Sequence record: AY692264.1
Reading direction: 5' to 3' (one strand)
Length of the DNA: 64,000 nucleotides
Source of the DNA: Escherichia phage T5
A program made the translations under genes and the position numbers. Position 1 is the first letter of the stretch; every line of letters starts with the position of its first letter. The notes under the pieces are model-generated. The model saw only the letters and a program-made list of their open reading frames with translations. It made no database searches and was not told the origin of the DNA. This document shows, piece after piece, positions 34,048-54,275 of the stretch.

Positions 34048-34076
34048 ATTATACAGAAGTTTAAGTATTTAAGCAA
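34048..34076 (-). promoter_or_regulatory. T5-type early promoter (TTGCTT-17-TATAAT)
   Basis: ATTATA 34048-34053, AAGCAA 34071-34076. Confidence 0.7.
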
Positions 34077-34084
34077 ATAAATTT

Positions 34085-34857: not shown

Positions 34858-34887
34858 AATAGCCTCGTTTCATCAATTTAAAAATAT

Positions 34888-34916
34888 ATTATACAGAAAA
34901 CTTAATAAATTAGCAA
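34888..34916 (-). promoter_or_regulatory. T5-type early promoter (TTGCTA-17-TATAAT)
   Basis: ATTATA 34888-34893, TAGCAA 34911-34916. Confidence 0.7.
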
Positions 34917-35299
34917 ATACATTTTTAAATTGTGAAACTAGTAAACCGATAAACAGCCTAGAGGCGCCACAGGCCATATCTTACGAGCCATGTACCTTTG
35001 ATCTAGGGTTTGAATCATCAACGAATACTTTGCATCTTTTAGCTTTAGAAGTTTAGAAGTTTGAGTTCTTTAAACTTTTCAGCTTTCATACTTAAATGTT
35101 GATCTTTGAAGTTGTGTCGGTAATATCAACGACTTTTTGTTTTTACGTGTCAGATTAAATGTCTGATGTAATAAACATAATCTCCAATAGATTATACTTT
35201 ATAGTATGGTCAGCGGTCTTATTTAACCTCGTATTTCAACCGCTGCTGCGAGGTAAGATGCTTGGGCTTTCGTCTACCGATTTACTAGCTTTTAAATTA

Positions 35300-35938
35300 T
35301 TACTCTACTTCAATGAAGGTAGAGGCATTAGACTCGGACAGAACAAAGTCAACATTTGTTGCAAAGTCCTGGTATTCCTCGTCATGCTGTTTAATCAGCT
35401 TCTCCAGTCCCAGCGGATCAATCAAGAATGGAGTATTCTTGAGTTCCAACAGGTTGAGCTGCATTTTAACTTCATCTTCGGAAGTTTTCTTATCGCGGGT
35501 AGCCATGCTATCCTGCAAACGCTCATATTTAGCATCAAACTGTGCTTTCTGCGTATTAAACTTAACCGTAGCGGCATGGAACTGCTTACGCATATTAGCC
35601 AGCAACTGAGCTTTAAGCTCCATAGAACGCTTAGCTTCAATTGCTTCTGCAACAGTCATTTTACGAGAACCGATCTCAACGATCGTTTCTGCGTTGCTCT
35701 TAATCAGAGCAGCTTTGATACGATCACGCTGGGACATCATATCCAGCAGAGACTGGAAATCAGTCTTAATACGAGTAGACAGGGCATCTACTTCGATTGC
35801 GGCGCCAACTACAACCTGGTTTTTATCCTTACCTTCACCAACAGCGATCAGAAGCTGTTGTTCAGTAGCTTTACGGATTTTAGCTTCCAGAGATTTGATG
35901 GTTGCCAGAGCACGAGTTTTAGAAATACGAGTGGTCAT
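35300..35938 (-). CDS. coiled-coil protein
   Basis: 212 aa; chosen over antisense plus-strand ORFs on operon direction and residue composition. Confidence 0.5.
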   Translation of the reverse strand: MTTRISKTRALATIKSLEAKIRKATEQQLLIAVGEGKDKNQVVVGAAIEVDALSTRIKTDFQSLLDMMSQRDRIKAALIKSNAETIVEIGSRKMTVAEAIEAKRSMELKAQLLANMRKQFHAATVKFNTQKAQFDAKYERLQDSMATRDKKTSEDEVKMQLNLLELKNTPFLIDPLGLEKLIKQHDEEYQDFATNVDFVLSESNASTFIEVE

Positions 35939-35990
35939 TGTTTCTTCCTTATATGAAGTTTAAGATTTGAATTTGTTTAAAGTTGGTCTA

Positions 35991-36173
35991 TTACAGACCA
36001 ATTGCCAGTAGGGTACGCAGAACAGTATCTTTACTGTTATCAATTTTAGGATTAGCACGATTTAGCAGATCAAAGATTTTCTGGACACCTGATTGACGTT
36101 CAGCCATACGACGGATACCCAGATTACGAGTAGCTTTCTTACCATTTTTACGAACATTTTTAGATACTGGCAT
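35991..36173 (-). CDS. small basic protein
   Basis: 60 aa, Lys/Arg-rich; downstream of promoter 36214. Confidence 0.4.
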   Translation of the reverse strand: MPVSKNVRKNGKKATRNLGIRRMAERQSGVQKIFDLLNRANPKIDNSKDTVLRTLLAIGL

Positions 36174-36213
36174 ATTTGTTTTCCTTTTGTTGTTTTCTCA
36201 AATTTATGAATAT

Positions 36214-36242
36214 ATTATACAGAATTTTGAAGCTGGAAGCAA
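36214..36242 (-). promoter_or_regulatory. T5-type early promoter (TTGCTT-17-TATAAT)
   Basis: ATTATA 36214-36219, AAGCAA 36237-36242. Confidence 0.7.
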
Positions 36243-36243
36243 A

Positions 36244-36945
36244 TCAAATTTTGATTTTTTCGACCATAGCTGCAACACAATAGCTCTCAACTAAGGCATC
36301 GAATGCTGGGTCATGTTTAACTGGGTAGATTCCATAACGAATGGTGTCCATCTTCTCCATCTTAGCTTTTGCCCAGCTAATCCCCTCTGCTTCTAGGTCT
36401 TTGTAGCTATAACCAGCCTGCATCCAGAGATTGCGGAGAGATCGAACATTGCCCAAGTTCCAGAATTTCCACGGAACTATTTCTTCATTGGTTCCAGCAT
36501 GAAACGTATTTGCAGAATAGATAGTCATATCAAATTCTGGGCCGTTGCCATAATACAAAGCATTCTCACCTAGAGCCAACTCCATAATATTTTGGGCCAT
36601 AGAGTAAGCAGCATAGTTAGAGCCGAGTTTATTAGTACAACGATGTTTACCATTTTGGAATGCAATCAGCTTTGGATTACGATCGTTCATAGCTTCCATA
36701 ATATGGAGAGCTGATGGACTATTTTTAGCTTGATCCATCCAGAATGCTAGAGTAGATGCCGTAACTTTAGCTCCAGAATTAAGCTGATCTTGTACATCCA
36801 AAGTAACAAACACTAGATCGGGGTCTTTATCAATTCCATGCATAGCCACAAAAGCGAAAGAAGGCATTGCGATATGAGTAGTACCGCAATCTCCTGGAGT
36901 TCCTAGAGATTCAATATCTAGCATACCAAATGGTTTTACTTTCAT
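36244..36945 (-). CDS. hypothetical protein, possible DEDD-type exonuclease
   Basis: 233 aa; N-terminal FGMLDIESLG resembles exonuclease motif I; weak. Confidence 0.35.
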   Translation of the reverse strand: MKVKPFGMLDIESLGTPGDCGTTHIAMPSFAFVAMHGIDKDPDLVFVTLDVQDQLNSGAKVTASTLAFWMDQAKNSPSALHIMEAMNDRNPKLIAFQNGKHRCTNKLGSNYAAYSMAQNIMELALGENALYYGNGPEFDMTIYSANTFHAGTNEEIVPWKFWNLGNVRSLRNLWMQAGYSYKDLEAEGISWAKAKMEKMDTIRYGIYPVKHDPAFDALVESYCVAAMVEKIKI

Positions 36946-36973
36946 AACTTATCTTTTATTGCGTAGAAAACTA

Positions 36974-37210
36974 TTAAAGAGCTGTCTCTTTAATAGACTC
37001 CCACTTCTTGAGGTCTTTAGAACCAGGAAGCATATCCTCACTGACATCCCAGTTCTCTTCCATAGAGAAGTCAGGCCATTCATTCCAGCTACCTTCCAGC
37101 TCTTCATAACAGGTATTCATTACCTCATGACTAGAAAGTCGTGTATAATCTCTAGCGGATTTATGGGTGCTAGCACGGTTAAAATCATTCTTTGCTACAA
37201 AATTACGCAT
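36974..37210 (-). CDS. hypothetical acidic protein
   Basis: 78 aa ORF. Confidence 0.4.
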   Translation of the reverse strand: MRNFVAKNDFNRASTHKSARDYTRLSSHEVMNTCYEELEGSWNEWPDFSMEENWDVSEDMLPGSKDLKKWESIKETAL

Positions 37211-37252
37211 AGTTTCTCCAAAATATGAGGGGCTTTCGCCCCTATTTATCTA

Positions 37253-37768
37253 TTACTTCGCTTTACGCTTGCGAGCTGGTTTAGCAGATTTACGAGCAGA
37301 ATCGCCCGTGAATTTAATCCCTACACCGTAGCACAGAGCACGAACGTTATCTTTGCTATACTCTACACCGAAGATATTTGGCTTAACAGAACCAAACTGT
37401 CCACGAGCATCACGCAGTACATCTGCCGTTGGTTTACGCTTCTGGTTAACTGCTTTCTCATAATCTTTCATGGCCATGCCATTACGAGAGAACAATTCAG
37501 CTCCAGCATTGAAACTCAGTGTTACTGGAACAGATTTGTGACCATAACCCTGTACATAGGTCACAAGGCGGGCTACAGAACGAGTAGCATTCTTAGCCTT
37601 CGGCTTTTGACGAATCGGAGCCGGACGATTCAGTGCCTGTGCAGCTTGAGCATCAGTAGGATGCTTGCGCAGGTGGCGTTCCAGACGAGCTTTGCGGTTA
37701 GCCTCAGTCTGCGGGAAAGTTTTAACTGTAGTAGCTGCTTGAGTTTTTGCGTTTTTCTGCTTAGCCAT
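37253..37768 (-). CDS. basic, probably nucleic-acid-binding protein
   Basis: 171 aa, strongly Lys/Arg-rich at both termini. Confidence 0.5.
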   Translation of the reverse strand: MAKQKNAKTQAATTVKTFPQTEANRKARLERHLRKHPTDAQAAQALNRPAPIRQKPKAKNATRSVARLVTYVQGYGHKSVPVTLSFNAGAELFSRNGMAMKDYEKAVNQKRKPTADVLRDARGQFGSVKPNIFGVEYSKDNVRALCYGVGIKFTGDSARKSAKPARKRKAK

Positions 37769-37806
37769 TATTTGTTTTCCTTTTTGTTTATCAATTTATG
37801 AAGTAT

Positions 37807-37835
37807 ATTATACGAGAATTTGAAGCGTTTAGCAA
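37807..37835 (-). promoter_or_regulatory. T5-type early promoter (TTGCTA-17-TATAAT)
   Basis: ATTATA 37807-37812, TAGCAA 37830-37835. Confidence 0.7.
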
Positions 37836-37851
37836 ATGAATTTTTTAAAAA

Positions 37852-38130
37852 TTATCTGCCGACCATCTTAGCTTGTTCTTCATCAGAAACGTATTGATAT
37901 GCACCCTTGTTATACGCCGGAGCAGTGCACATCTTCTTACGCTCAATTTCTTCTTGAGCTTTACGTTCACGTTCTGCCAATTCCTCATCCAGATAAACTA
38001 AACGTTGTTCTGGAGGAGGTGGAAGACGTGTTTCTGGCTCACCAATATTAGCCTTTCTTATTTGACGAGGTGATTGTGCACGTTTTCTCAACGGTTTAAA
38101 TCCTAATGAATTTGAGTTATAAATTCGCAT
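37852..38130 (-). CDS. hypothetical protein
   Basis: 92 aa ORF. Confidence 0.4.
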   Translation of the reverse strand: MRIYNSNSLGFKPLRKRAQSPRQIRKANIGEPETRLPPPPEQRLVYLDEELAERERKAQEEIERKKMCTAPAYNKGAYQYVSDEEQAKMVGR

Positions 38131-38157
38131 AAAGCCCTCCTCACTTTCAATACGAAT

Positions 38158-38186
38158 ATTATACTAAATTAGAGGGCTTTAAGCAA
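38158..38186 (-). promoter_or_regulatory. T5-type early promoter (TTGCTT-17-TATAAT)
   Basis: ATTATA 38158-38163, AAGCAA 38181-38186. Confidence 0.7.
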
Positions 38187-38206
38187 GAAGATTTTTAATT
38201 TATTTA

Positions 38207-38695
38207 TCACATCTCGGCCATTTCAGCTTCAGTAATAACTGTGTTACACAATGCATCTACAGCTTCATTACCACTAATACCAGAATGTCCTTTAACCTTA
38301 ATAAAGGTAGGATTAGTATTGTGGAAGTTAATGTATTGCTGGGTTAATTTAAATGCTTCTTGCCAAAGTTCTAGATTAAGAGGAACTTCACCATCTGCTT
38401 TCTTCCAGCCTTTCCTTTGCCAAGAGAACATCCAGCTTTCCATACCATTTTTGCAATAAGCAGAATCAGTATAGATAACAATTGGTCTATTATCTTTTTT
38501 AACTGACCAACGTAGAGCTTCTACAATAGCTGTGAGTTCCATCTCATTATTTGTAGTTTTAGGACTATAACCAGATTTAGAGCCTAAACGATCGTCGTTA
38601 TCATCATAGACAATAAAACCCCAAGCACCCGGGCCAGGGTTGGACTTACAAGCGCCATCTGTATAAACATGGAAAACTGACATTATTTGCTCCAA
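38207..38695 (-). CDS. rnh: ribonuclease H
   Basis: 162 aa; RNase H1 signature (YTDGAC ... ELTAIVEAL ... YTDSAY ... GHSGISGNEAVDAL). Confidence 0.85.
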   Translation of the reverse strand: MEQIMSVFHVYTDGACKSNPGPGAWGFIVYDDNDDRLGSKSGYSPKTTNNEMELTAIVEALRWSVKKDNRPIVIYTDSAYCKNGMESWMFSWQRKGWKKADGEVPLNLELWQEAFKLTQQYINFHNTNPTFIKVKGHSGISGNEAVDALCNTVITEAEMAEM

Positions 38696-38744
38696 TTAAT
38701 AGTTACCCAATAGCCTTCACGCTAATTATGATCAAGTAAAATAT

Positions 38745-38774
38745 ATTATATTTGAAATTATACCTAATAAGCAA
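38745..38774 (-). promoter_or_regulatory. T5-type early promoter (TTGCTT-18-TATAAT)
   Basis: ATTATA 38745-38750, AAGCAA 38769-38774; GCCC-loop-GGGC hairpin at 38791-38810 between thyA stop and promoter. Confidence 0.6.
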
Positions 38775-38816
38775 GTACAATTTCAAATATAATAGCCCCC
38801 GAAAGGGCTATTTGAG

Positions 38817-39656
38817 TTAAGAAGACATCTTAGCTTTAAGAGCTGGGTGAGGATCGTACCCCTCTAAATGGAATGACCAAGCTGCCGTATTATTTTCTAG
38901 TAAGTCGTAAAGATCTACAAATTCTGGCATTACTAGAGTCGGTAGAGGGCGTGGCTTGCGTTTTACCTGTTCTTCTACCTGTTCCATGTGGTCATTATAG
39001 ATATGAGTATCACCGCCACTAAAGATAAGATAACGAGGTTTTAATCCTGTCAGTTTTGCTAATATATGCGTTAGCAAAGCATAGCTAGCAATATTGAAAG
39101 GTAAACCGAGGAAACAATCCACAGAGCGTTGTGTCCATTTAAGATCTAGGTATCCATCGTTACTTACATAGCACTGGAAGCCGTAGTGGCAAGGGGGTAA
39201 TGCCATTTTATCAAGTTCAGCTACGTTCCATGCAGAAACTAGATGTCTGCGGCCATGAGGATTATTCTTGAGTCCTTCAATAAGTTCTAGAATCTGATCT
39301 CGCCCACCAAAGTTACGCCACTGTTTACCATATACTGGTCCTAGATTACCCTTATCATACCCCATACTTATAGCTTGGTCTTCATAATTTGGAGTCCAGA
39401 TGGTCCACTGTCCTTCGTCACGACCAAATGTGAATACACGTAGATCATGAAGATTTGTGGAACCAGACAAGAACCATAAAAGTTCTCCTACTACTGATTT
39501 CCAGGCTAGGCGTTTAGTAGTTACAGCCGGGAACCCTTCACGTAGGTCAAACTTAGCATAGGAATCAAAAATTGAAACTGTGCCCGTTCCTGTACGGTCA
39601 TTACGGGGTTCACCTAGTAAAATTACATCTGTCAAAATTTTTAAGTATTGTTGCAT
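38817..39656 (-). CDS. thyA: thymidylate synthase
   Basis: 279 aa; conserved ThyA blocks including PPCH active-site region. Confidence 0.9.
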   Translation of the reverse strand: MQQYLKILTDVILLGEPRNDRTGTGTVSIFDSYAKFDLREGFPAVTTKRLAWKSVVGELLWFLSGSTNLHDLRVFTFGRDEGQWTIWTPNYEDQAISMGYDKGNLGPVYGKQWRNFGGRDQILELIEGLKNNPHGRRHLVSAWNVAELDKMALPPCHYGFQCYVSNDGYLDLKWTQRSVDCFLGLPFNIASYALLTHILAKLTGLKPRYLIFSGGDTHIYNDHMEQVEEQVKRKPRPLPTLVMPEFVDLYDLLENNTAAWSFHLEGYDPHPALKAKMSS

Positions 39657-40189
39657 TAATAAGTAACCAATTCCTGTACAAATCGCAGGCTGTTATCACT
39701 GTTTGCGCCAACTGCATAGACTAATCGAGTGGATTCATAGTTATAATCCAGTATCATACTATCTAGGTGTGTATCTGCTTCTAGTTTCTGCTCGCTAAAG
39801 ATTGTAGATACAAAAGCACTTTCAATATGCCCATGTTGGTACATTTCTAGAAGAAGATTAGCTCCACCTAGAACTACTGTTTGCTGATCTTTTAGAAAAG
39901 TAGGTAATGTATCACCTATCATTGATATGGGAGTGTAAATATCGTGTGTAATATCATCTGGCAGTGGACGATCAGCACGAATAAATAGGTCAGAAGCCCC
40001 AATCATACGTTCCCTAACGGCATATGGAAGAGCTAAATAAGTACCTGCCCCAATAATAATATTATCAGGATTTAGTACATCTAATTGTGAATAAAAAGCA
40101 TCTAGTTCTTCTTTAAAAGAACCCCAGGGAAGCTTACCTCGGAGGCCGAACTCCCCATTCGGCCCAACTGCATACATTGCTGTAATCAT
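39656..40189 (-). CDS. frd: dihydrofolate reductase
   Basis: 177 aa; N-terminal MI-A-AV-G...LPW motif; follows thyA as in T5. Confidence 0.65.
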   Translation of the reverse strand: MITAMYAVGPNGEFGLRGKLPWGSFKEELDAFYSQLDVLNPDNIIIGAGTYLALPYAVRERMIGASDLFIRADRPLPDDITHDIYTPISMIGDTLPTFLKDQQTVVLGGANLLLEMYQHGHIESAFVSTIFSEQKLEADTHLDSMILDYNYESTRLVYAVGANSDNSLRFVQELVTY

Positions 40190-41331
40190 AGGAAATCTCC
40201 AAATTCATTGCCCAGATCTTTCAGAGTATCAGTAGAGGTCTCAGTTACCTGACCTACACGGTAGGCTGCACCAATCTGGATTTCTTGTGGAGCAGGCTGT
40301 AGAGAAGTAGTATCCAACCAGTTCATGATCCACGGAATAGGGTTTTTAGTGATTACTGGTAAGTGACTAGGCCATTCTACACCAATGTGCATAAATGCAT
40401 TACGCCCCACAAAGTACAAGTATTCTTCTAGAAGTTCTGCATTCAAACCAATCAGACTACGACCTTTGAAGATGAAATGACCCCATTCAATTTCAGTTTT
40501 CAGAGTTTTCAGGAGCTGTGCTGGTGCTTTAGCCACTGCTTCGTCTACCAGATCTTTGTCAAACTGCTGGAACATAATCTGGATGATTGCTTTAGACATC
40601 TGGGTGTGCAGAGCCTCATCTTTAGCAATTAATTGCAGATTTTTAGCAATACCTTGCAGAATATCGTTCTCTGCTAGAGCAAAAGTACATGCAAAGGATG
40701 CGTAGAACTGCATTGCTTCCAGACCGTAGATTGCAAAATAAGCGTCTAATAACTTAGCCTGAGTTTCACGTTTAACTTCAGGGAACTCAGTTTCTGGATA
40801 TGTATTGTCACCACGATGATCACGTACTGCGATGAAATACTGACCTAATTGGTACAGTTCATCGAACAGTTCAACAGAATCTGCGATACGTGCAAATGCT
40901 TCTTGGTTTTTAGTTACAGAATCAATAAATTCTGCTGGATCAGTCAGCACATTACGAATAATATTACTATAAGCACGACTATGCAGGTCTTCAAAATAGC
41001 TCCACTGCTTGAGCATACCTTCCAATTCTGGACGGCTTACAAGCGGCATAATAGCTGCTTCAGGCGCGCGACTAATGAAAGAATCTGTTTGAGTCTGCCA
41101 TGCTAAGTTCAGGAGTGTGATTTCCTGGATTTCACGTGGGAGATTGGGCCATTGTTTCTTATCTGCTTCCAGACTGATTTCAGTTTCAGTCCAAAATTGA
41201 GAGCGAGCTAATAACGCCAGCCTTTCTAGCTCTGGATGGGCTACTCGTACATAATCTGCAATACCAAGAGAATCACCGAGAAATAGATCTTTATTGGTAT
41301 GATCCCAGTTTAAGTTAAGTAAAGTTGTCAT
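40186..41331 (-). CDS. nrdB: ribonucleotide reductase small subunit
   Basis: 381 aa, ferritin-like RNR R2 profile, adjacent to nrdA. Confidence 0.8.
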   Translation of the reverse strand: MTTLLNLNWDHTNKDLFLGDSLGIADYVRVAHPELERLALLARSQFWTETEISLEADKKQWPNLPREIQEITLLNLAWQTQTDSFISRAPEAAIMPLVSRPELEGMLKQWSYFEDLHSRAYSNIIRNVLTDPAEFIDSVTKNQEAFARIADSVELFDELYQLGQYFIAVRDHRGDNTYPETEFPEVKRETQAKLLDAYFAIYGLEAMQFYASFACTFALAENDILQGIAKNLQLIAKDEALHTQMSKAIIQIMFQQFDKDLVDEAVAKAPAQLLKTLKTEIEWGHFIFKGRSLIGLNAELLEEYLYFVGRNAFMHIGVEWPSHLPVITKNPIPWIMNWLDTTSLQPAPQEIQIGAAYRVGQVTETSTDTLKDLGNEFGDFL

Positions 41332-41855
41332 TAGTTCTCCTGTTTATCTGTGTTTCTAAGTAGTGTTGGGTCTTTGGTTATAGAGAGAATTAAAGAATCT
41401 CGATACTCTATCGCCTCTTCTAGAGTTGGGAGAGTTTTCACATATTCTTTTCCGTTAATGGATTTTCTAACTTGAAATCCAGACCCTTTCTTCCGAATAT
41501 TCTTAGTACCCAATATATTGTTTTTACTGGTTTTTCTATTTTGACTATTTAACTGCCAGTCCGCTTCTCTTAGATTAGTCCACTTATAGTTTAGTGAATC
41601 TCCATCTATATGGTCAACCATAACTTTAGGTAAGTTTCCTGTCATGTACAGGAAAGCAATATTTTGTGCGGGATACTTCTTACCCTTGATTTGTATTACT
41701 AAGTCTTTTCGGTTAGGATCTACTGAGTGGGGTTTTAAACAGCCAGCAGGTAGTCCTCTTACTTTATTGTGTACTTCCTGGTTATTTAACCAAGTAAATG
41801 TTCCTTCATCTGGATTATACTCCAGAATCCTTTTTAATTCATCTTGTGTTATCAA
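41331..41855 (-). CDS. HNH homing endonuclease inserted between nrdA and nrdB
   Basis: 174 aa; paralog of 25638-26150 and 61574-62107 (shared MITQE(E/D)LKR N-terminus). Confidence 0.7.
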   Translation of the reverse strand: MITQDELKRILEYNPDEGTFTWLNNQEVHNKVRGLPAGCLKPHSVDPNRKDLVIQIKGKKYPAQNIAFLYMTGNLPKVMVDHIDGDSLNYKWTNLREADWQLNSQNRKTSKNNILGTKNIRKKGSGFQVRKSINGKEYVKTLPTLEEAIEYRDSLILSITKDPTLLRNTDKQEN

Positions 41856-41957
41856 AACTAATCTCCTTAACTAATGGAGATATTATAGCAAATCAGGTAG
41901 CGATTAGCAAGTAAAATTTCAAAGAAAAAGGAGACCCGAAGATCTCCTTGTTTTTTA

Positions 41958-45754: not shown

Positions 45755-47629
45755 ATGAATCGCAATGATGAACTAAAATACAAGGAAATGCAGTCCTTGA
45801 TTAGAAACTGCAAAGAAATTATTGAGGGTTCTGCTGATGAAGAGCTTCTCTTTAATAATGCGAATAAACCCTCTGAGCGTTTCCCTACACAAAGGGATAT
45901 GCTTGCAGGGGAATTGAGTAAATATCTGATTCTAGAAGAAATGCCAGTTCAGATTCGAAATGCTCATATGATTGGAGATATTCATTTCCATGATGCTGAC
46001 TACGCTGCATTAGGCATGACTAACTGTTGCCTAGTAGCTCTAGAAGATATGTTGAAAAATGGTATGAAAGTTGGTAATGCTGAAATTAGTACACCAAATT
46101 CTATTACTACTGCGGCGGCTATTACAGCTCAAATTATCACACAGGTTAGCTCCCATCAGTATGGTGGTACTTCTGTAGACCGATTAGATGAAGTATTGGC
46201 CCCTTATGTTCGTAAGTCTTATGATAAGAATCATGCGTTTGCAAAACGTTGGACTAAGGATGAAGCCAAAGCATCAGTAATGGCTACGGAGATGACTGAA
46301 AAAGAAGTCTATGATGCTTGTCAGGGTCTAGAGTATGAGATCAATACGATGTTCAACTCTAATGGTCAGAGTCCATTTATTACTTTTGGTTTTGGTCTAG
46401 GAACTTCTTGGGAAGCACGTCTAATACAGAAAGCAATACTGAAAGTACGTATGGATGGCTTAGGCATCAATAAACGTACAGCTATCTTTCCGAAACTGGT
46501 GTTTGTTCTGCGTGATGGCGTAAATATGAAGCCTGGAGATGTTAATTATGACATCAAGAAGTTAGCTATGAAATGTACTGCTGAACGTATGTATCCAGAC
46601 TATATCAGCTATGATAAGGTTGTGGAAGTTACTGGTGACTATAAAGTTTCTATGGGCTGCCGTTCATTCTTAGCTGCTACAGAAGATGGTGAAACTGCCG
46701 GTCGTAATAACTTGGGTGTTGTTTCTGTAAACTTGCCTAGAATTGCTATCGAAGCTGAAGGGAATATTGATCTATTCTTTGATTTGCTTGAGCTACGTGT
46801 GGATACAGCGTTAAAAGCATTGGAGTGGAGAGTTGATCGCTTAAAATACATTCAAGCTAAAGCCGCACCCATCCTCTATATGTCAGGGGCCTTTGGATTA
46901 CGCTTAGGGCCTGATGAATATGTATTCGATCATTTCTATAACCGTGCTTCTGTATCTCTGGGGTATATTGGTTGCCATGAAATGCTACAGTTCATGTTTG
47001 GCAAAGATGTAGATACAATGTCTGAGACCTGCATCAAGTTTGTTCAGCGTGTATTGCAGTACATGCGGGATAGGGTCGATCAGAAGAAGGAAGAGACTAA
47101 GTTAGGTTATAGCCTGTATGCTACACCATCAGAGTCCCTATGTGATCGCTTCTGTCGTCTAGACCGTGAATATTTTCCGGAGCATGAAGATATTCTGTCC
47201 AAAGGATACTACACTAACTCTCACCACCTTGATGTGGAACGTAAAGTTGCTCCTAACGTGAAATTTGATTACGAATCTAACTTTACTCCGATTGCTTCTG
47301 GTGGGTGTATCTCTTATGTAGAACTACCAGATATGAAACGATTCCCAGATGCACTGGAATGGGTTATTAATTATGCTGCTAGTAAGGTTCATTACTTCGG
47401 TATTAATACTCCAGTGGATTCCTGTGGTAAATGTGGATTCTTAGGTGAAACAGTAGCATCCGAAGATGGATTTAAGTGCCCTATCTGTGGTAATCATGAC
47501 CCTGAAACTCTTGAAGTAACTCGTCGAGTTTGTGGGTATCTTGGAAATCCAGGTGCTCGTCCGTTTAACCCAGGAAAACAACATGAGGTTATGGGCAGGG
47601 TGAAACATCAGGATATTCGAGCTAAATAA
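45755..47629 (+). CDS. nrdD: anaerobic ribonucleoside-triphosphate reductase (class III)
   Basis: 624 aa; C-terminal glycyl-radical motif RVCGYLG and Cys-rich zinc site. Confidence 0.9.
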   Translation: MNRNDELKYKEMQSLIRNCKEIIEGSADEELLFNNANKPSERFPTQRDMLAGELSKYLILEEMPVQIRNAHMIGDIHFHDADYAALGMTNCCLVALEDMLKNGMKVGNAEISTPNSITTAAAITAQIITQVSSHQYGGTSVDRLDEVLAPYVRKSYDKNHAFAKRWTKDEAKASVMATEMTEKEVYDACQGLEYEINTMFNSNGQSPFITFGFGLGTSWEARLIQKAILKVRMDGLGINKRTAIFPKLVFVLRDGVNMKPGDVNYDIKKLAMKCTAERMYPDYISYDKVVEVTGDYKVSMGCRSFLAATEDGETAGRNNLGVVSVNLPRIAIEAEGNIDLFFDLLELRVDTALKALEWRVDRLKYIQAKAAPILYMSGAFGLRLGPDEYVFDHFYNRASVSLGYIGCHEMLQFMFGKDVDTMSETCIKFVQRVLQYMRDRVDQKKEETKLGYSLYATPSESLCDRFCRLDREYFPEHEDILSKGYYTNSHHLDVERKVAPNVKFDYESNFTPIASGGCISYVELPDMKRFPDALEWVINYAASKVHYFGINTPVDSCGKCGFLGETVASEDGFKCPICGNHDPETLEVTRRVCGYLGNPGARPFNPGKQHEVMGRVKHQDIRAK

Positions 47630-47637
47630 GCTAATCA

Positions 47638-47670
47638 GCCAGGTTGCTAGTCGACCTGGCTTTTATTTTA
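47638..47670 (+). terminator. rho-independent terminator
   Basis: GCCAGGT-loop-ACCTGGC hairpin followed by TTTTATTTTATTT. Confidence 0.65.
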
Positions 47671-47671
47671 T

Positions 47672-47700
47672 TTGCTTTCAGCTAAAAATATATGTATAAT
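47672..47700 (+). promoter_or_regulatory. T5-type promoter (TTGCTT-17-TATAAT)
   Basis: TTGCTT 47672-47677, TATAAT 47695-47700, then GAGGAGG RBS. Confidence 0.75.
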
Positions 47701-47729
47701 AGATTTATAAATTTGAGGAGGTAGGAATT

Positions 47730-48110
47730 ATGACTTTAAAACCGTATATAGTGGAGTCTACGTGTGGTGGTTTCCACCTGGGTGTGGATGATATTGCTGA
47801 GGCTGTCTTTGCTGCCACAGGTGATTACTCTCATATAGAGGGTGCTGGATACCCCACCGTTATTGGTGATTGGGTGGAAACAAATCTAGATGTATCGCCT
47901 TATAACCCGTATTGCTTGTTTGATGAAGATAGAGATGAGGTAAAGTGTAATCTTGAATTTGTGTATAATAGAGTATTAAAAGTATACCAACGTAGTCCCG
48001 ATGGGTACGAAGATATTACTTGTAGTATTAAACAGTATCTTAAAGATGTATACTCTAGTTTTTCTGACGAAGACCTAGAAACAGTTGCAGTGGAGTTTAA
48101 TAATGACTAA
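47730..48110 (+). CDS. hypothetical protein
   Basis: 126 aa ORF; no radical-SAM CxxxCxxC motif, so not an NrdG activase. Confidence 0.5.
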   Translation: MTLKPYIVESTCGGFHLGVDDIAEAVFAATGDYSHIEGAGYPTVIGDWVETNLDVSPYNPYCLFDEDRDEVKCNLEFVYNRVLKVYQRSPDGYEDITCSIKQYLKDVYSSFSDEDLETVAVEFNND

Positions 48111-48336
48111 GAATGTGAAACACCTTAAATATCGCTTAATCTATAACGGACGTATGGAAACGGAAGAGCTAGCTCAATTAGCTATTAATTCTAATGAGGT
48201 TATGGTGCGTGCGCTAGCAATTGAAAAGTTGCGGGCTTCTTATGAAAGTCGTATTATGGAATTAGAGGAGAAACTTTATGGACTTCTTGAATCAGAAGCT
48301 AAAAGTAGTCCAGAGGGCGAGACTTCTAATCAGTAG
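48085..48336 (+). CDS. hypothetical protein
   Basis: 83 aa ORF. Confidence 0.4.
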   Translation: MQWSLIMTKNVKHLKYRLIYNGRMETEELAQLAINSNEVMVRALAIEKLRASYESRIMELEEKLYGLLESEAKSSPEGETSNQ

Positions 48337-48390
48337 TGGAGTAATTTTACTCCAAAATATTATCTAGGGGTTCAAGAGAGGAATCATATA

Positions 48391-49209
48391 ATGCGTAGGC
48401 TAATTATTATTAGTGGTGCAGGTTTGAGTGTTGAAAGTGGTGTACGAGCCTTCCGTACGGATACTGCTAGTGGTAAAGCATTGTGGGATGATTATGATCT
48501 AGAAGAGGTATGTAATATTCATGCCTTTCGTGGTAACTTTTATCATAAAACCCATATGTTTTACAACAAGCGACGTGAAGAGCTAAAAACTGTTGAACCT
48601 AATCTTGCGCATCTTCGTATTGGTGAATGGTATAAGAAATATCCGGGTCAAGTAGTAAATTTGACTACTAACGTTGATGACCTTATTGAGCGTGCTGGTG
48701 TTCCGCATAGTGACATTCTGCATATTCATGGGTATTTAAAAGAGGTTGTTGTAGCTGACAGCTACAATAGTAGCAATAAACGAGTTATTGATGTAGGGTA
48801 CAATTCTATTGACCCAGATGATTATAAATGGGTTAAACCTAATGTAATCTTCTTTGGTGAGCATGCTCCAGCGTACACAGAAATGTATAATATTTTTGAT
48901 GGTATTACCAGTCAAGATATGATCGTTGTAGTTGGTTGCTCTAACCAAGTAATTAACTTCTACTGGGAATTATTCCCTATTCTTAACCGTACTGCTGCGA
49001 AACTTATGGTAGTTAACTACTATGATAGTGCCCTAGCATCGAAACCAGGCTATCAAGGTATGACTCGTAGTGATATGTACCAACTGGAAGATCGTGGTAT
49101 TCCTTACTGGAGTAAAGGTGCGGTAGATGCTTTCAGTGATCCTGGTTTTATTGCTCGTGTAGAAGCTCATCTAGAGGGTAGACCTTATGTGTCAGGAAGT
49201 AAGAAATAA
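48391..49209 (+). CDS. Sir2-like (sirtuin family) NAD-dependent protein
   Basis: 272 aa; GAGLSVESGVRAFR (Rossmann NAD motif), TTNVDDL, HIHGYL blocks in sirtuin order. Confidence 0.55.
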   Translation: MRRLIIISGAGLSVESGVRAFRTDTASGKALWDDYDLEEVCNIHAFRGNFYHKTHMFYNKRREELKTVEPNLAHLRIGEWYKKYPGQVVNLTTNVDDLIERAGVPHSDILHIHGYLKEVVVADSYNSSNKRVIDVGYNSIDPDDYKWVKPNVIFFGEHAPAYTEMYNIFDGITSQDMIVVVGCSNQVINFYWELFPILNRTAAKLMVVNYYDSALASKPGYQGMTRSDMYQLEDRGIPYWSKGAVDAFSDPGFIARVEAHLEGRPYVSGSKK

Positions 49210-49372
49210 TGAATGGGATATTTTCATAACTGAGTCTGGCACTTGGTGCTATAGATTTGCCTATAGGTTTCCTAGTGTAAGAAAACGGCTGGGATACACA
49301 TATAAAATTATCTACACTACAGATAATATATGGTTATCCTCTGGAGATGAGGGGAAACAGATATGTCCATAG
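49187..49372 (+). CDS. small protein, paralog of next ORF
   Basis: 61 aa; shares G(T/S)WCYR core with 49363-49545. Confidence 0.35.
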   Translation: MCQEVRNNEWDIFITESGTWCYRFAYRFPSVRKRLGYTYKIIYTTDNIWLSSGDEGKQICP

Positions 49373-49545
49373 TTAAATCTGTGTATACACATCCCGATGA
49401 TATATTTGTATGGGCGGATGGTAGTTGGTGCTATCGATGTGAGCTATGGGAAATGGACTATAAATCCGATGACTATGGTGTCATATATGTTGATACAGTT
49501 GAGTATGATACGTTCTTAGAAAGGGACAAAAATGGAAATAAGTAA
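49363..49545 (+). CDS. small protein, paralog of previous ORF
   Basis: 60 aa. Confidence 0.35.
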   Translation: MSIVKSVYTHPDDIFVWADGSWCYRCELWEMDYKSDDYGVIYVDTVEYDTFLERDKNGNK

Positions 49546-50038
49546 TACTCCAATTATTTTTCTAGACATTGATGGGGTGCTCAATTCGAGCATCTCCCAC
49601 CATCATGCACCTGATGATGAAAAGATTTTCTTTGGAAGTGACTGGGTTTTTAAACCGCTTCTCAAGGCTTTTCAGGACTTTATTCGTCCTTCTCCAATAA
49701 TGATTGTTGGGGTATCTTCATGGTTCTCTGTCAGGAATGAGATGGAGAACGTTCAGATTATGACCGGGTTAGGTCTTATAGACCGTTTTCTTGGTACAAC
49801 GGATTTTACTGGTGGTGGGCTATCTAGGGGTAATTCTGTTCTTCGCTTCGTTGAAAAGCATAAGCTCAAACATTGGTGTGTGCTGGATGATGCTGGTGCT
49901 ATGATGTATCAGTATCCAACGGTTATAGTCAATGGTAGAACTGGAATAAATCTTCAAGATTTAAGAGCTGTTAGCTATATGTTAGAATTTAGTCCAGATC
50001 TTGAAATGTGTAAAGCCCTACAACAATTTAAGGTGTAA
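49532..50038 (+). CDS. HAD-like hydrolase
   Basis: 168 aa; HAD motif I FLDIDGVLN at N-terminus. Confidence 0.5.
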   Translation: MEISNTPIIFLDIDGVLNSSISHHHAPDDEKIFFGSDWVFKPLLKAFQDFIRPSPIMIVGVSSWFSVRNEMENVQIMTGLGLIDRFLGTTDFTGGGLSRGNSVLRFVEKHKLKHWCVLDDAGAMMYQYPTVIVNGRTGINLQDLRAVSYMLEFSPDLEMCKALQQFKV

Positions 50039-50040
50039 AT

Positions 50041-50469
50041 ATGTTTAATAATGTATTCTCTAAAGAAGCTAATCCAATATTGGTTAATTTTTGGCGTACT
50101 CTTCCAGCCAACCTGTACAATGAGGCTATTAATGCTCTAAAAATATGGTGTGAGAATAATGAAATCTCCTTTGCTTTTAAAGGCGAGATTGAAGAAGCTC
50201 CCTGTATTGGTTTAATTGTGCAGGTAGAGGATGGTCTTGAAGAGATTGTCGGCTGGAAAGAGTTAGATGAAATGGGCTTGGTTTTTGCATTAAACTATAA
50301 GCTGTTTATGCCTAATAAACACCGTATTGTTGTTAACTATAAAACCAGTGAATCTCCTGGCTTTCAAGTTAATGAACATTACGGTTGGTCTTACTCACCG
50401 GAAGAAGTAAATGATGGTATCCAAAAACTTCGTCGTTTTGGTTATCAAATTCCGGGTTTAACTGCCTAA
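50041..50469 (+). CDS. hypothetical protein, tandem paralog A
   Basis: 142 aa; shares PCIG ... MGL(V/I)(F/V)ALN(Y/F)(K/S)LF ... PGL with next ORF. Confidence 0.45.
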   Translation: MFNNVFSKEANPILVNFWRTLPANLYNEAINALKIWCENNEISFAFKGEIEEAPCIGLIVQVEDGLEEIVGWKELDEMGLVFALNYKLFMPNKHRIVVNYKTSESPGFQVNEHYGWSYSPEEVNDGIQKLRRFGYQIPGLTA

Positions 50470-50478
50470 GGAGGCACA

Positions 50479-50871
50479 ATGGAACAAATATATTGGCGTC
50501 AGATTGATCCTAGTTTGGTGAAGTGTGCAGAGAAGCTGCTACAACGTTGGTTGGGGGTAAGACAAGCCTCCTTCACTTTTCCGGAGCAGCAAATAGACGA
50601 TCCCTGTATTGGTGTTTTCCTATCAGGCTACGCTGGGGAATGGGAATTGGATTGGAATGAATTGTCTGCTATGGGTTTAATTGTTGCACTAAATTTCTCT
50701 TTGTTCCATCCACGTGGTTTGGCTATATGTCGTGTGCCTGATGATGGTTGTTCGCCCCATCTTTTACGGGTGGAAGATGATATTTGGGAGTACACTCCAG
50801 ATACTCTCAAAGAAGCTAAAGAACAGTTAAACCGTGTTGGGATCTATGTTCCAGGCCTGAATGATGAATGA
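50479..50871 (+). CDS. hypothetical protein, tandem paralog B
   Basis: 130 aa. Confidence 0.45.
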   Translation: MEQIYWRQIDPSLVKCAEKLLQRWLGVRQASFTFPEQQIDDPCIGVFLSGYAGEWELDWNELSAMGLIVALNFSLFHPRGLAICRVPDDGCSPHLLRVEDDIWEYTPDTLKEAKEQLNRVGIYVPGLNDE

Positions 50872-50895
50872 TTTTTATTAGCTGAACTCTGATTA

Positions 50896-50922
50896 CCGAG
50901 TCATTTTGGCTCGGTTTTCTCT
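50896..50922 (+). terminator. rho-independent terminator
   Basis: CCGAG-loop-CTCGG hairpin followed by TTTTCT. Confidence 0.55.
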
Positions 50923-50962
50923 GTACTCAAAGACACTGATAGCACCATCCGGAAAATTTTAC

Positions 50963-50991
50963 TTGCAGGATGCCCAAAATCTTGATATAAT
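50963..50991 (+). promoter_or_regulatory. sigma70 promoter (TTGCAG-17-TATAAT)
   Basis: TTGCAG 50963-50968, TATAAT 50986-50991; about 500 bp without ORF follows. Confidence 0.65.
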
Positions 50992-51488
50992 ATTTATATT
51001 GAATTGAGAGACATTAGTAAAAATTGATTTTGCTAATTTTTCTTGTTTACAATCCGCGATACGGAACAGTTAGGCTGCCCCATTAAGGGTTGTTTTAACT
51101 GTTACTAGTGTTTATATTGCATTAGTTAATATTCAATTAAGTGATCTGTGTACCCTGAATTCGGAAAGGTAAATCCAAACCGTGCATATTTAGCTCGTTA
51201 TATAGGCAGAGTTTTATATGGGGGTGCGAACGAAAAGAGCAGCGAATGGCGGCACGTACAGTAGTCACCTACCAATAGGATAGTGAGGACAAATAGAATC
51301 GGCTTAGCGGCCAATGACCTAGGTTCTATTCTGTATATGAGCGAAGAGAGCACAGCACTGAGATATGATAACTTATTCATATTGTTTGATGATAATTGAT
51401 GTTTACGTAAATAGTAGTAATAGTTGTTCTATTCTTTCTGAATAGTCCTAAAGAAAAGATTTCGATTAACCAACACAGGAGTATTGTT
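50992..51488 (+). other. ORF-free segment of about 500 bp (candidate replication origin or ncRNA)
   Basis: promoter-proximal, no ORF of 60 aa or more; inverted repeat AACAGTTA...TAACTGTT; immediately upstream of helicase-like gene. Confidence 0.3.
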
Positions 51489-54275
51489 GTGTTTTCTATC
51501 CTCCAAGGTCACGCCGGATTTTCTCGTGATTTAGCAACAGGTATTTGGCGAGAAATCAAAGCGGAAGATTATACCTTTGCCAAGCGATTCTCGAAAGAGC
51601 ATCCAGAAGGTAAACCAGCTTCTATGCCCTTCAAATTTGATGTAATAGAAGAGCACGACCCACAAAGCCTTGCCGAAATGTTACCCCTCATGAGACGTTT
51701 AACGTCTGACCCTCATATCGTTGCGGTGCGAGGTCGATGTCTCGCACCTAAAAATAATGTGCGACGTAAGAAAGGTAACTTTAATGTATCTAATCCTAGT
51801 AATATTATTGCTATGGACGTGGATGGTATCCTAGATACCGGTGGGTATGACAAATTTAATCTTGTTGGTATGGCCCGCCACATTATTAAGATGTTGAATA
51901 GTATTAGTGAGGATATGTTTCCTCTTGATGCAGGGTTTATTGCTCATGCATCGTCTTCGGCTGGGCTAAAACCAGGTATCCGAATGCACTTAATGCTAGA
52001 ATCTAACGTCAAGGTAACTCAGGGTCAGCTAAAGTTCTTATTTACATCTATCAACGATAGTAGTAAGCAAAAATTTGGTTTTGATATTGCCGACCTAGCT
52101 TATTATTCATCTGTCCAGCTCCACTATTTTGCCGACCCCTTATTTAGCGATGGTATTGTTGATCCGTTTAAAGCGGAGAGTAAGCCACGTCTGGTGTATG
52201 TTAAAGGTTCGAAAGTAAATTTGCCCAATAATCTGGTTGACTATGAAACAACTAGAGGGGAGTTTAAGGAAGGGTTTTATTCTTTACTTGATCAAATTAA
52301 AGGCAAAAAGATTGCTTCTGATAAAGTAGAAGAAACCATCAGCGAGTTAGAAGAGGCTGATGATGGAGTGTATTTGCGTATTATCCCCAAACTATACCAT
52401 AGAGCATTAGAGGATGGTGTTGATTTTGCATGGCTAGAACGTGAGATTAAACCAGCTTTATCTGAATATATTGCAACTAAAGATAACAGTCGTAATATTC
52501 AAGATTACTTTAATAACGGTCGTAAGCAGGCTCTCAAAGCGTTTGTTAATAATTCTAAACGTGAGATTCCATTAAATCTGAAAGGTGTTCCACTTAAGAA
52601 ATTAGAAGTGGATTCTCCACCAGAAGTTCCATACCTGAAGATTAACATTGTGCCCCCAAAAGGCCATATAACATTTGTTAAGGCAAGTCTTGGTACTGGT
52701 AAAACTACGGCAGTAACTAAATGGCTGGACGCAGGTGTTCTTCCAGGCAACTTTTTAGCAGTTACAAATACTAGAGCACTGGTATCTTCAAATGCCAAGA
52801 AATTTAGTGCAGGACAATACGATAAGTCTGTAGATATGCTCAACTTTAAACGTGGAGCTATCGATCGTATGTCCACAACTATTCACTCTTTGCATAAGTT
52901 CAAAAGTTTTATTGGGCAAATAGACACCATTTTTATTGATGAATGTGACGCTGTAATGAATGACCTATTATTCGCCCCTGTTGTTAAACAACGTCGCGAG
53001 TGTATTCAAGTTCTACGTGACATCCTTATGACAGCTAAGACTGTAATCTTATCCGATGGTGATATTAGTGCTGAGACGATTGAAGCATATGGTTCTCTAA
53101 TTGATTTTGATAAACCAGTAGCATTTTATAATCATCACCGTAAAATGCTGTCAAAAGCACACGCTTATGAGTTTCCTGATGAATCCAGTATTTGGGTTGC
53201 ACTTCAGACTTCTCTAGAGATGGGTGAGAAATCTATTCTAGTATCTGATTGTGGCCCGGATGAGCTGAATGAGAAGGGTATGGCACTGCGTCGTAATACG
53301 GGTGCGTTAGTTAAGGAAATCCATTCAAACTCCACCTCAGATGTGGATATTCGACGTATTCTGGATTATACAACTAATGAGCTAATTGATCAACAAATTG
53401 ATTGCTTATTATGTAGTCCATCCGTAACGAGTGGCGTTGACTTTAACTATTTCGATAATGTGTTTGTTATTACTAGAACCAGTAATCAAGCGCCAAACAT
53501 GCGTTTCCAAGCAATCAGGCGCGACCGTGGTGCCCAGAACATCTATTATTTTATTGATAAATCTACGAGTGGATTCTCTGCAGGTTCTGAGCAATATAAT
53601 ATTGATGAAGGTTGGCTGGAGTTAGCACAGCAATTATACGCACGTCGTAGAGAGCTGGAATCTAGAAACTATACTAGTACCTTACGTTATTATTTGCTTG
53701 ATCAGGGTGCAACTATTGATATTTTCAGCGAAAGCTGGGGAACTATTGAAGGTGCTGGTAAAGAATATACAGAAGAGCGAATCAAAGCTATTCTGCATTC
53801 AACTCCAGATTATTGTGCCCCACGTCATGCAGATGCATATGAAGCTAAACTACTTCTTGTTCGCTATTATCATCTTGAGTCTATTAAAGATGTAACAGTT
53901 GAGCATGTCGAACAATATATCAAAGATAAACCGAATGATCGAGCTGCATTCTTCCATAAGATGCACGAGATGTTCTGGGAAGATATTAAGAAGTGTTCAA
54001 ATGTGACCATTAAACCATTCATAGAGGCTCTGAAAGGTAAGAAGAAAGACTTCTTCCTTAAAACAGGTCAGAGTGCCAACCCAAAATATGCTAGAATGTA
54101 TCTTGGTATGATGGGTATTGGTAAGGATATGAACACTGAAAATATTGTAGACTGGTACAGAACCTATTGTAAAATCGAGTGTATGCCAATTCCTTTCAAA
54201 TTCATGACAGAGGAAGAGAGGGCTATGGCAGAAGAAGTAATGTCCGAACTTGGAGCAACTAATGAAGATGCATAA
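51489..54275 (+). CDS. large Walker A/B NTPase, probable SF2 helicase or origin-binding protein
   Basis: 928 aa; GTG start with AGGAG RBS; Walker A SLGTGKTTAV and Walker B IFIDECD. Confidence 0.6.
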   Translation: MFSILQGHAGFSRDLATGIWREIKAEDYTFAKRFSKEHPEGKPASMPFKFDVIEEHDPQSLAEMLPLMRRLTSDPHIVAVRGRCLAPKNNVRRKKGNFNVSNPSNIIAMDVDGILDTGGYDKFNLVGMARHIIKMLNSISEDMFPLDAGFIAHASSSAGLKPGIRMHLMLESNVKVTQGQLKFLFTSINDSSKQKFGFDIADLAYYSSVQLHYFADPLFSDGIVDPFKAESKPRLVYVKGSKVNLPNNLVDYETTRGEFKEGFYSLLDQIKGKKIASDKVEETISELEEADDGVYLRIIPKLYHRALEDGVDFAWLEREIKPALSEYIATKDNSRNIQDYFNNGRKQALKAFVNNSKREIPLNLKGVPLKKLEVDSPPEVPYLKINIVPPKGHITFVKASLGTGKTTAVTKWLDAGVLPGNFLAVTNTRALVSSNAKKFSAGQYDKSVDMLNFKRGAIDRMSTTIHSLHKFKSFIGQIDTIFIDECDAVMNDLLFAPVVKQRRECIQVLRDILMTAKTVILSDGDISAETIEAYGSLIDFDKPVAFYNHHRKMLSKAHAYEFPDESSIWVALQTSLEMGEKSILVSDCGPDELNEKGMALRRNTGALVKEIHSNSTSDVDIRRILDYTTNELIDQQIDCLLCSPSVTSGVDFNYFDNVFVITRTSNQAPNMRFQAIRRDRGAQNIYYFIDKSTSGFSAGSEQYNIDEGWLELAQQLYARRRELESRNYTSTLRYYLLDQGATIDIFSESWGTIEGAGKEYTEERIKAILHSTPDYCAPRHADAYEAKLLLVRYYHLESIKDVTVEHVEQYIKDKPNDRAAFFHKMHEMFWEDIKKCSNVTIKPFIEALKGKKKDFFLKTGQSANPKYARMYLGMMGIGKDMNTENIVDWYRTYCKIECMPIPFKFMTEEERAMAEEVMSELGATNEDA

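Follow-up and report, generated by a model that had tools for sequence, protein, structure and literature searches.

Phage sirtuins and small phage phosphatases of the HAD family have both been linked to the processing of RNA ends. In a comparative genomic study, Iyer et al. 2022 proposed that phage sirtuins remove 2'-phosphates from RNA in the manner of KptA (PMC9503650, section 3.7.3), and the passages concerned distinguish three neighborhood types, with the T5-like phage SP15 as the prototype of the type that combines a sirtuin with a HAD protein of the SAK (“Swiss-army-knife”) family. The SAK HAD family has been described as a stand-alone RNA-end phosphatase of phages (PMC7824862), an activity that is predicted for HAD_SAK proteins in passages of both papers (PMC7824862, PMC9503650). 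Here, we compare with these systems a locus of Escherichia phage T5 that consists of the open reading frames (ORFs) T5.102–T5.107. The window is the whole stretch analyzed, 64,000 nucleotides of sequence record AY692264.1, and positions refer to it unless they are given as locus coordinates. We tentatively favor the reading that the sirtuin T5.102 and the HAD protein T5.105 may process phosphorylated RNA ends or the ADP-ribose phosphate by-products of such processing.

An original prediction, made from the letters of the sequence, had claimed sirtuin-type blocks for binding nicotinamide adenine dinucleotide (NAD) in the ORF at 48391–49209, and this ORF is real: it encodes 272 amino acids that match the Pfam family SIR2 (PF02146) over the full length of the profile (E = 1.1e-24; 87.8 bits vs. 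a cut-off of 24; profile positions 1–178 of 180). In the SIR2 and HAD profile searches that had been named beforehand as a check, both ORFs scored above their family thresholds. The AlphaFold2 model of T5.102 (predicted local distance difference test score, 89.3; predicted template modeling score, 0.88) takes the sirtuin fold, and its top Foldseek matches were CobB, Sir2Af1, and SIRT5, with E values down to 8e-18 and template modeling (TM) scores up to 0.85. The best sequence relative of solved structure was Escherichia coli CobB (1s5p), at 1e-17, or at 1e-30 when the profile of the phage clade was used, followed by the Archaeoglobus Sir2Af proteins and SIRT5. The HIHGYL block, in which a catalytic histidine had been expected, corresponds to residues 111–116, and His113 aligns with the catalytic histidine of CobB. 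A failure to place the ORF in the sirtuin fold and an absence of catalytic residues had been named as the results that would speak against the prediction, and we observed neither for T5.102.

An alignment of 24 diverse phage homologs (49–94% identity) defined the features of the clade. The segments GAGxSxxSGxxxFR, FYxxRR, TTNVDD, His113-Gly114, KPNVxFFxE, and GxS and the residue Asn209 were invariant in all 24, as were the NAD-binding and catalytic positions (G9-A10-G11-x-S13, R22, N94, D96, H113, G182-x-S184, and N209) and the class III pair Tyr58/Arg61 in FYxxRR, which aligns with Y92/R95 of CobB. Other features of CobB are altered. The zinc-binding cysteines are gone: residues 115–148 contain no cysteine in T5 and 0–1 in the 24 homologs, compared with four in CobB, and the same loss has been reported for Vibrio phage sirtuins (PMC5107563). 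In the phage clade, the Gln of QNID is replaced by the invariant Thr93 (TNVD), and the peptide-clamping strand VYP (β-staple motif) reads VIN or VID; four clade members have H, E, R, or C in place of the Gly of FGE. The scores of T5.102 against the CobB models of NCBIfam were less than half of the equivalog and subfamily cut-offs (101.6 bits vs. 243 for NF001753; 91.8 bits vs. 320 for prot_deacyl_CobB). The acyl-pocket residues of CobB, a list read off engineered CobB variants in alignments, are A76, Y92, I131, V162, and V187, and these correspond to C41, Y58, V95, V132, and V152 in T5.102. Because these positions align conservatively, the pocket beside the nicotinamide ribose appears to be conserved in character. 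Judged from these comparisons, T5.102 is a sirtuin in which all residues predicted to serve NAD+ binding and catalysis are intact and strongly conserved, and it is a phage-specific, zinc-less derivative of a CobB-like sirtuin that is predicted to be enzymatically intact. We found no published assay of, or experiment on, any member of this phage sirtuin clade.

The HAD-motif hydrolase that had been predicted in the same cluster is also real. It is encoded at 49532–50038 (T5.105) and belongs to HAD_SAK_2 (PF18143; 4e-20; 73 bits vs. a threshold of 27.5). HAD motifs I–IV (D12-x-D14, S62/S63, R99, and D119-D120) are invariant in six homologs, down to 32% identity. With only 168 amino acids, the protein is too small to accommodate a cap domain, and cap-less HADs tend to act on macromolecular substrates, such as the ends of nucleic acids. 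No solved structure related to T5.105 by sequence was detected. On the strength of its motifs, T5.105 is predicted to be a cap-less HAD phosphatase that belongs to the phage RNA-repair family and is catalytically intact. In the T4-like phages Proteus PM2 and Aeromonas Aes012, the HAD gene lies in variable regions, and nothing informative was found in these contexts. In RefSeq and in many newer T5-like records, the HAD gene T5.105 is mislabeled “Sir2 (NAD-dependent deacetylase)”; this is apparently an error spread via the label of PHROG 18062, and no profile search supported it.

We analyzed the distribution and the gene context of these proteins in other phages. A tblastn search of a phage collection with T5.102 gave matches in 999 records, and the groups matched were T5-like, rV5-like, Mydovirus-like, KVP40-like, and jumbo phages and Phapecoctavirus. 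Relatives with at least 48% identity occurred in T5-like, rV5-like, Mydovirus-like, and phi92-like phages, and those with 34–41% identity in KVP40-like and jumbo phages; homologs with at least 49% identity were found almost only on phage-sized contigs. Three separate lineages have the sirtuin gene tightly clustered with genes for a calcineurin-like phosphoesterase (Metallophos), an Rnl1 ligase (RNA_lig_T4_1), and an AAA_33 kinase; they are represented by Raoultella phage Ro1, Erwinia phage pEa_SNUABM_55, and a 133-kb Logan contig. In two of them (Ro1 and the Logan contig), the cluster also encodes a cREC protein. An ATP-dependent DNA ligase gene follows 0–4 genes downstream. The gene order is shuffled among the three lineages, and the kinase and Metallophos genes of the Logan contig are on the opposite strand. 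In the jumbo phage G17, the sirtuin gene overlaps a Nudix gene, and in Aeromonas phage PX29, a HAD homolog and a single-domain DUF7415 gene flank rnlA within 2.5 kb. The gene contexts found here reproduce and slightly extend the neighborhoods described in section 3.7.3 of Iyer et al. 2022.

Genes related to NAD metabolism were also observed near some of these clusters. A gene for phosphoribosyl pyrophosphate (PRPP) synthetase lies a few kb upstream of the sirtuin cluster in Ro1 and pEa_SNUABM_55, a gene of the nicotinate phosphoribosyltransferase (NAPRTase) family occurs in pEa_SNUABM_55, and Ro1 has a NADAR gene some 6 kb downstream of the cluster (locus coordinates 1–209 and 12608–12777 in Ro1; 1–1416 in pEa_SNUABM_55). 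A 161-amino-acid neighbor in pEa_SNUABM_55 was initially guessed to be a NADAR protein, and this assignment was dropped because it had no Pfam match.

Within the T5-like phages, the cluster varies as an accessory cluster would, in agreement with the original prediction: the genera differ in their HAD, DUF7415, and T5.103 content. The association of the sirtuin gene with HAD_SAK_2 in T5-like phages extends, in rearranged form, to Erwinia phage KEY, which is T5-like but has no nrdD. There, the DUF7415 genes are missing and the order is HAD, a T5.100 homolog (tblastn, 1e-9; locus coordinates 5619–6008), and Sir2; T5.100 may belong to the same module as the HAD and the sirtuin.

Natural deletions at the locus were found in two relatives of T5. 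SelmaRatti (Bas34), which was grown on E. coli K-12, lacks the sequence equivalent to window 48701–49890; the deletion joins residues 1–103 of Sir2 to roughly the final 48 HAD residues, with the junction at an “AG” common to “...ERAG” and “...DDAG”. DT57C lacks 48385–48883 and 49027–49898. The ORF in which what is left of Sir2 is fused to the HAD C terminus is at locus coordinates 3501–3950 in SelmaRatti and 3480–3752 in DT57C. The two deletions are independent of each other, and both remove the catalytic half of the sirtuin, both of the small ORFs behind it, and all HAD motifs; T5.106 and T5.107 are kept in both phages, with about 94% nucleotide identity. These deletions indicate that growth on laboratory hosts does not require the Sir2–HAD segment, which is lost in one piece. 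The BASEL paper reports no phenotype specific to the Sir2-defective SelmaRatti.

In the mechanism that we propose, a host nuclease would cut tRNA or other RNA and leave a 2',3'-cyclic phosphate or a 2'-phosphate. Using NAD+, the sirtuin would carry the phosphate off as ADP-ribose 1''-2'' cyclic phosphate, by the chemistry of Tpt1/KptA, with His113 driving the second step; that the Tyr58/Arg61 anion pocket might hold the phosphate is our own speculation. The HAD could then take off the remaining terminal phosphate or dephosphorylate the ADP-ribose phosphate by-product. The sealing of the ends would be left to a host enzyme, since T5 has no RNA ligase. The conserved active site of the sirtuin and its departures from the deacylases would, we infer, count in favor of RNA-end processing, the contexts of the sirtuin and HAD genes in other phages suggest it, and the joint natural loss of Sir2 and HAD also appears to favor it. 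We consider unlikely the wider proposal that the phage clade represents the first sirtuins with RNA as their natural substrate, namely a Rossmann-fold analog of Tpt1/KptA that frees tRNA or mRNA damaged by nucleases from 2'-phosphates, with the phosphate bound in the Tyr/Arg anion pocket, and that works with a partner HAD and with the small WxDGxWC proteins T5.103/T5.104 and the DUF7415 proteins T5.106/T5.107 as accessory factors against RNA-cleaving immunity.

Several points weigh against RNA-end processing. The sirtuin loci of Phapecoctavirus and KVP40-like phages have no recognizable RNA-repair neighbor, and the HAD is missing in Sugarlandvirus, which keeps Sir2. When Rnl1 of Ro1 and PX29 and the cREC protein and kinase of Ro1 were compared with the T5 sequences searched, the best tblastn E value was only 0.03, and the retrieved parts of the T5 records contain no RNA ligase or kinase annotation, the only ligase annotated there being the NAD-dependent DNA ligase. 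A 3'-phosphatase without a kinase and a ligase is an incomplete repair path. Moreover, the host ligase RtcB needs a 3'-phosphate, and a 3'-phosphatase would oppose it. Adjacency within phage early regions is only suggestive evidence, and we found no biochemical test of RNA-end activity in the literature. The remaining points, the identity of the nearest relatives and the state of the acyl pocket, also bear on the first of the alternatives.

According to this alternative, T5.102 is an NAD+-dependent protein lysine deacylase (deacetylase or desuccinylase) like the host CobB, its probable ancestor. It would be an early enzyme that strips acyl groups from host or phage proteins, for example acetyl-CoA synthetase or the transcription and translation machinery, and the HAD and the small proteins would be unrelated neighbors. 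Each of the nearest relatives of T5.102 by sequence and by structure (CobB, Sir2Af1, and SIRT5) is a protein lysine deacylase; the Tyr/Arg pair of class III, which recognizes succinyl- and malonyl-lysine, is invariant; and the acyl-pocket residues of CobB are conservatively retained. To our knowledge, the characterized members of PF02146 are nearly all deacylases, which also counts for this alternative. It matches the standing annotation and is the view taken for the Vibrio phage sirtuins (PMC5107563). However, it has to accommodate the loss of the zinc cysteines, the changed VYP strand, the unfixed Gly of FGE, and scores that are well under the CobB equivalog cut-offs, in a host that already has CobB, and it leaves unexplained the recurrent linkage of the sirtuin to an RNA ligase, a kinase, a phosphoesterase, a SAK HAD, or a Nudix protein in unrelated phages. 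On balance, we regard a deacylase as only slightly less likely than RNA-end processing. The original prediction had suggested that the phage sirtuin deacylates or ADP-ribosylates host proteins; we found nothing in support of either activity, and the contexts elsewhere point to RNA-end processing.

An improbable alternative is ADP-ribosyl transfer to host targets during takeover, with T5.102 acting on protein or DNA in the way of Alt, ModA, and ModB of T4 or the SirTM sirtuins. There is a precedent in sirtuins that transfer ADP-ribose, as noted in section 3.3.2 of PMC9503650, the gene lies within a unit annotated as early, and the altered peptide-binding motifs would allow another acceptor. In opposition to this, no macrodomain (the operon partner of the SirTM type) or other ADP-ribose-removing partner was found by Pfam in the seven neighbors, the class III acyl/anion pocket is kept and not remodeled, and the libraries used gave no similarity to known ADP-ribosylating sirtuin systems.

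Action on the NAD+ pool or on NAD-derived immune signals, by which T5.102 would counter Thoeris, CBASS, or SIR2-type defenses or starve the host, is very improbable, because although NAD+ is by the motifs a certain co-substrate, NAPRTase, PRPP synthetase, and NADAR genes lie within about 6 kb in Ro1-like phages, and a Phapecoctavirus-type phage has an Acb2/Tad1-type gene some 4 kb upstream of the sirtuin, none of the eight proteins of the unit matched the PADLOC models of defense-type SIR2 NADases, the Pfam results for the unit contained no HerA, TIR, pAgo, or other defense partner, the conserved catalytic His and acyl pocket fit a transferase and not the SIR2_2-type hydrolases, and depletion of NAD+ would hurt the phage itself, whose DNA ligase is NAD+-dependent. 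The normal growth on K-12 of phages without the sirtuin gene is neutral in this respect. The effects on NAD+ pools and the relevance to NAD-depleting defenses that had been predicted are thus unsupported.

RNA-end processing by T5.102 and T5.105 therefore remains our preferred, tentative reading, and the two genes are considered below in their transcriptional setting. The eight genes T5.100–T5.107 form one terminator-bounded unit of T5, at 47637–50915, which the T5 records annotate as early. Neighboring genes are packed, with overlaps of 8–23 nt or gaps of 2–54 nt, as expected of one transcription unit; the largest overlap, 23 nt, is between the start of T5.103 and the stop of Sir2. The features of the unit are as follows.

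47637–47661, plus strand: intrinsic terminator that closes nrdD and is the upstream boundary of the unit; 10-pair stem and T run; annotated in NC_005859.
47652–47726, plus strand: promoter of the unit, by record annotation only (“putative early promoter T5P31” in AY587007).
47730–48110, plus strand: T5.100, 126 amino acids; phrog_11748 (PHROG match, 2e-75).
48103–48336, plus strand: T5.101, 77 amino acids, helical or coiled-coil-like; phrog_5236.
48391–49209, plus strand: T5.102, 272 amino acids, sirtuin of a phage-specific, CobB-like, zinc-less clade; Pfam SIR2, 1.1e-24.
48727–48729, plus strand: His113 codon; this histidine (in HIHGY) is predicted to be catalytic and aligns with the histidine of the CobB HG.
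49187–49372, plus strand: T5.103, 61 amino acids, degenerate WxDGxWCYR small domain; phrog_5116, 6.7e-24.
49363–49545, plus strand: T5.104, 60 amino acids, typical member of an unnamed domain family; phrog_5116, 1.9e-29.
49532–50038, plus strand: T5.105, predicted cap-less HAD phosphatase of the HAD_SAK_2 family; PF18143, 4e-20.
50041–50469, plus strand: T5.106, 142 amino acids, two DUF7415 repeats; PF24187, 3e-33.
50479–50871, plus strand: T5.107, 130 amino acids, two DUF7415 repeats.
50895–50915, plus strand: intrinsic terminator, downstream boundary of the unit; 9-pair stem and T run; annotated in both T5 records.

The statement that the sirtuin gene comes immediately after nrdD does not hold, because the terminator at 47637–47661, the annotated promoter, T5.100, and T5.101 intervene. 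A consensus promoter scan listed no site at 47652–47726. T5.101 is kept in KookSpook and bastian. An Rfam search of the region gave no match to RNA genes, and the 617-bp spacer before T5.108 contains only short repeats at chance level.

The two paralogs of about 60 amino acids with a common core, reported in the original prediction, were confirmed as T5.103 and T5.104 (61 and 60 amino acids). By BLASTP, the two align only over a core of 13 residues (62% identity; pairwise E = 2e-5), and the membership of both in phrog_5116 shows that the paralogy is real. T5.103 is the degenerate copy, with 24% identity to T5.104 in the alignment and with the SDDY motif lost; of the T5-like loci that were compared, only those of T5 and its close relative KookSpook had it. 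The T5.104 domain has about 45 residues, with the consensus P-D-D-I-x-x-W-P-D-G-T-W-C-Y-R...S-D-D-Y, and its family comprises 219 clusters at 50% identity (E ≤ 1e-3). No named family or structure for the WxDGxWC domain was found in Pfam, the PDB, or the literature. Some members of the family carry the domain in fusion with an Xre-type helix-turn-helix domain or an AbrB/MazE-type (DNA-binding) domain, and one protein carries it twice. A T5.104-type gene directly follows the sirtuin gene in Tequintavirus, Epseptimavirus, and Sugarlandvirus, and in T5-like records it begins at, or overlaps, the sirtuin stop. In the Sugarlandvirus Klebsiella phage IME260, an unannotated T5.104 homolog (45% identity; locus coordinates 3943–4074) occupies what looks like a gap behind the sirtuin gene.

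The second predicted pair, paralogs of about 135 amino acids ending in PGL, is equally real: T5.106 and T5.107 have 142 and 130 amino acids, end in IPGLTA and VPGLNDE, and share 32% identity (E = 2e-20). They match DUF7415 (PF24187) with 114 and 105 bits vs. a threshold of 27, and each half of either protein alone also matches the family (53–65 bits), which gives four tandem copies in all. When the halves were tested for duplication with hhalign, the probability was 0.6%, probably because the columns were split crudely, and we accepted the separate Pfam matches of the halves. No known fold was found for the DUF7415 pair, and the pair probably acts independently of the two enzymes. Single-domain DUF7415 proteins of about 75 amino acids occur in T4-like phages, where their genes follow nrdD in Klebsiella phage KP17 and rnlA in Aeromonas phage PX29, and lie near nudE in Lw1. 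In the Jiaodavirus T4-like phages, the DUF7415 gene overlaps the end of nrdD (KP17, locus coordinates 4980–5213) and is followed by an ORF of 156 amino acids. Taken together, the KP17-type and T5 loci place DUF7415 close downstream of nrdD in two unrelated groups, the T4-like and the T5-like phages. In records, DUF7415 proteins are named “tail tube protein” or “exonuclease”, among other labels, and no profile search supported these names. A homology between DUF7415 and T5.104, based on a hairpin-like “DDG-W-(C/E)-Y” motif (E = 0.003 among eight sequences), was too weak, and we make no such claim.

Regarding the source of the sequence, window 47600–51500 is 100% identical to Escherichia phage T5 AY543070/NC_005859 and 99.7% identical to the T5 record of ATCC 11303-B5. 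The first base of the window is T5 genome position 1, and at the locus, the window position equals the record position minus 8056. The tRNA and stable-RNA region at 33681–41878 of NC_005859 is missing from the window, an 8.2-kb deletion with its junction at about 33680, which indicates that the window comes from a deletion strain or from another T5 isolate. Within nrdD (45755–47629), the window carries about 143–150 extra bases, at 46933–47075, relative to NC_005859/AY543070, and the nrdD ORF has 624 amino acids in the window and in AY587007 compared with 574 in NC_005859. In AY543070 and AY587007, T5.102 is labeled “putative Sir2-like protein” and “cobB, putative transferase”; the Sir2-like annotation dates from the genome records of 2004–2005.

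Since the gene, its annotation, and the sirtuin–HAD neighborhood are present in public records and in the literature, the finding is already known: the annotation of T5.102 is twenty years old, and the neighborhood was described in 2022. The additions made here are modest: the conserved and altered sirtuin motifs are mapped across the phage clade, HAD and DUF7415 are linked to rnlA in PX29, a small domain beside the sirtuin is recognized as widespread and unnamed, and joint natural deletions that affect Sir2 and HAD are described. The function of phage sirtuins is a real question that can be tested in T5, a tractable model with the natural deletion variants SelmaRatti/Bas34 and DT57C ready for comparison. 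If the substrate were an RNA 2'-phosphate, sirtuin chemistry would be widened and a repair arm added against tRNA-cleaving immunity; if T5.102 were a deacylase, a virus would be resetting the acylation of host proteins.

Finally, T5.102 and T5.105 can be set beside the known systems. Like CobB, SIRT5, and Sir2Af1, T5.102 is a PF02146 protein with a sirtuin fold (TM score of 0.85 to 1s5p), the NAD motifs, the catalytic His, and Tyr-x-x-Arg, and its identity to CobB is about 24% in the structural alignment. CobB differs in having four zinc cysteines, QNID, and VYP, whereas T5.102 has no zinc cysteines and has TNVD and VIN; moreover, unlike CobB, it is encoded by a lytic phage in the same unit as a phosphatase gene. 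With the defense SIR2 NADases (ThsA, DSR1/2, SIR2-HerA, and SIR2-pAgo), T5.102 has only the name and the use of NAD+ in common. Those enzymes, typically of another Pfam family, SIR2_2, are host-encoded with partner genes, whereas T5.102 is phage-encoded and has no such partner in its unit. T5.105 has the same DxD, S, R/K, and DD motifs and the same small size as the phosphatase domain of T4 Pnkp and the cap-less HAD polynucleotide phosphatases, but unlike T4 Pnkp, it has no fused or nearby kinase. The likeness to Tpt1/KptA, as drawn in the relevant passages of Iyer et al. 2022, lies in the proposed NAD+-dependent removal of a 2'-phosphate, the two-step chemistry of which would parallel the sirtuin mechanism; Tpt1 has a fold of the ADP-ribosyltransferase superfamily, whereas T5.102 is a Rossmann-fold sirtuin and not a member. 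The passages of that study on phage sirtuins, which give the mechanism as a prediction, do not discuss the WxDGxWC proteins, the DUF7415 pair, T5.100, or the missing RNA ligase of T5-like phages. Nevertheless, their type 3 neighborhood, that of SP15, has the same pairing of a sirtuin with a SAK HAD as T5, and the SP15 locus covers 87% of the query at 94.7% identity.

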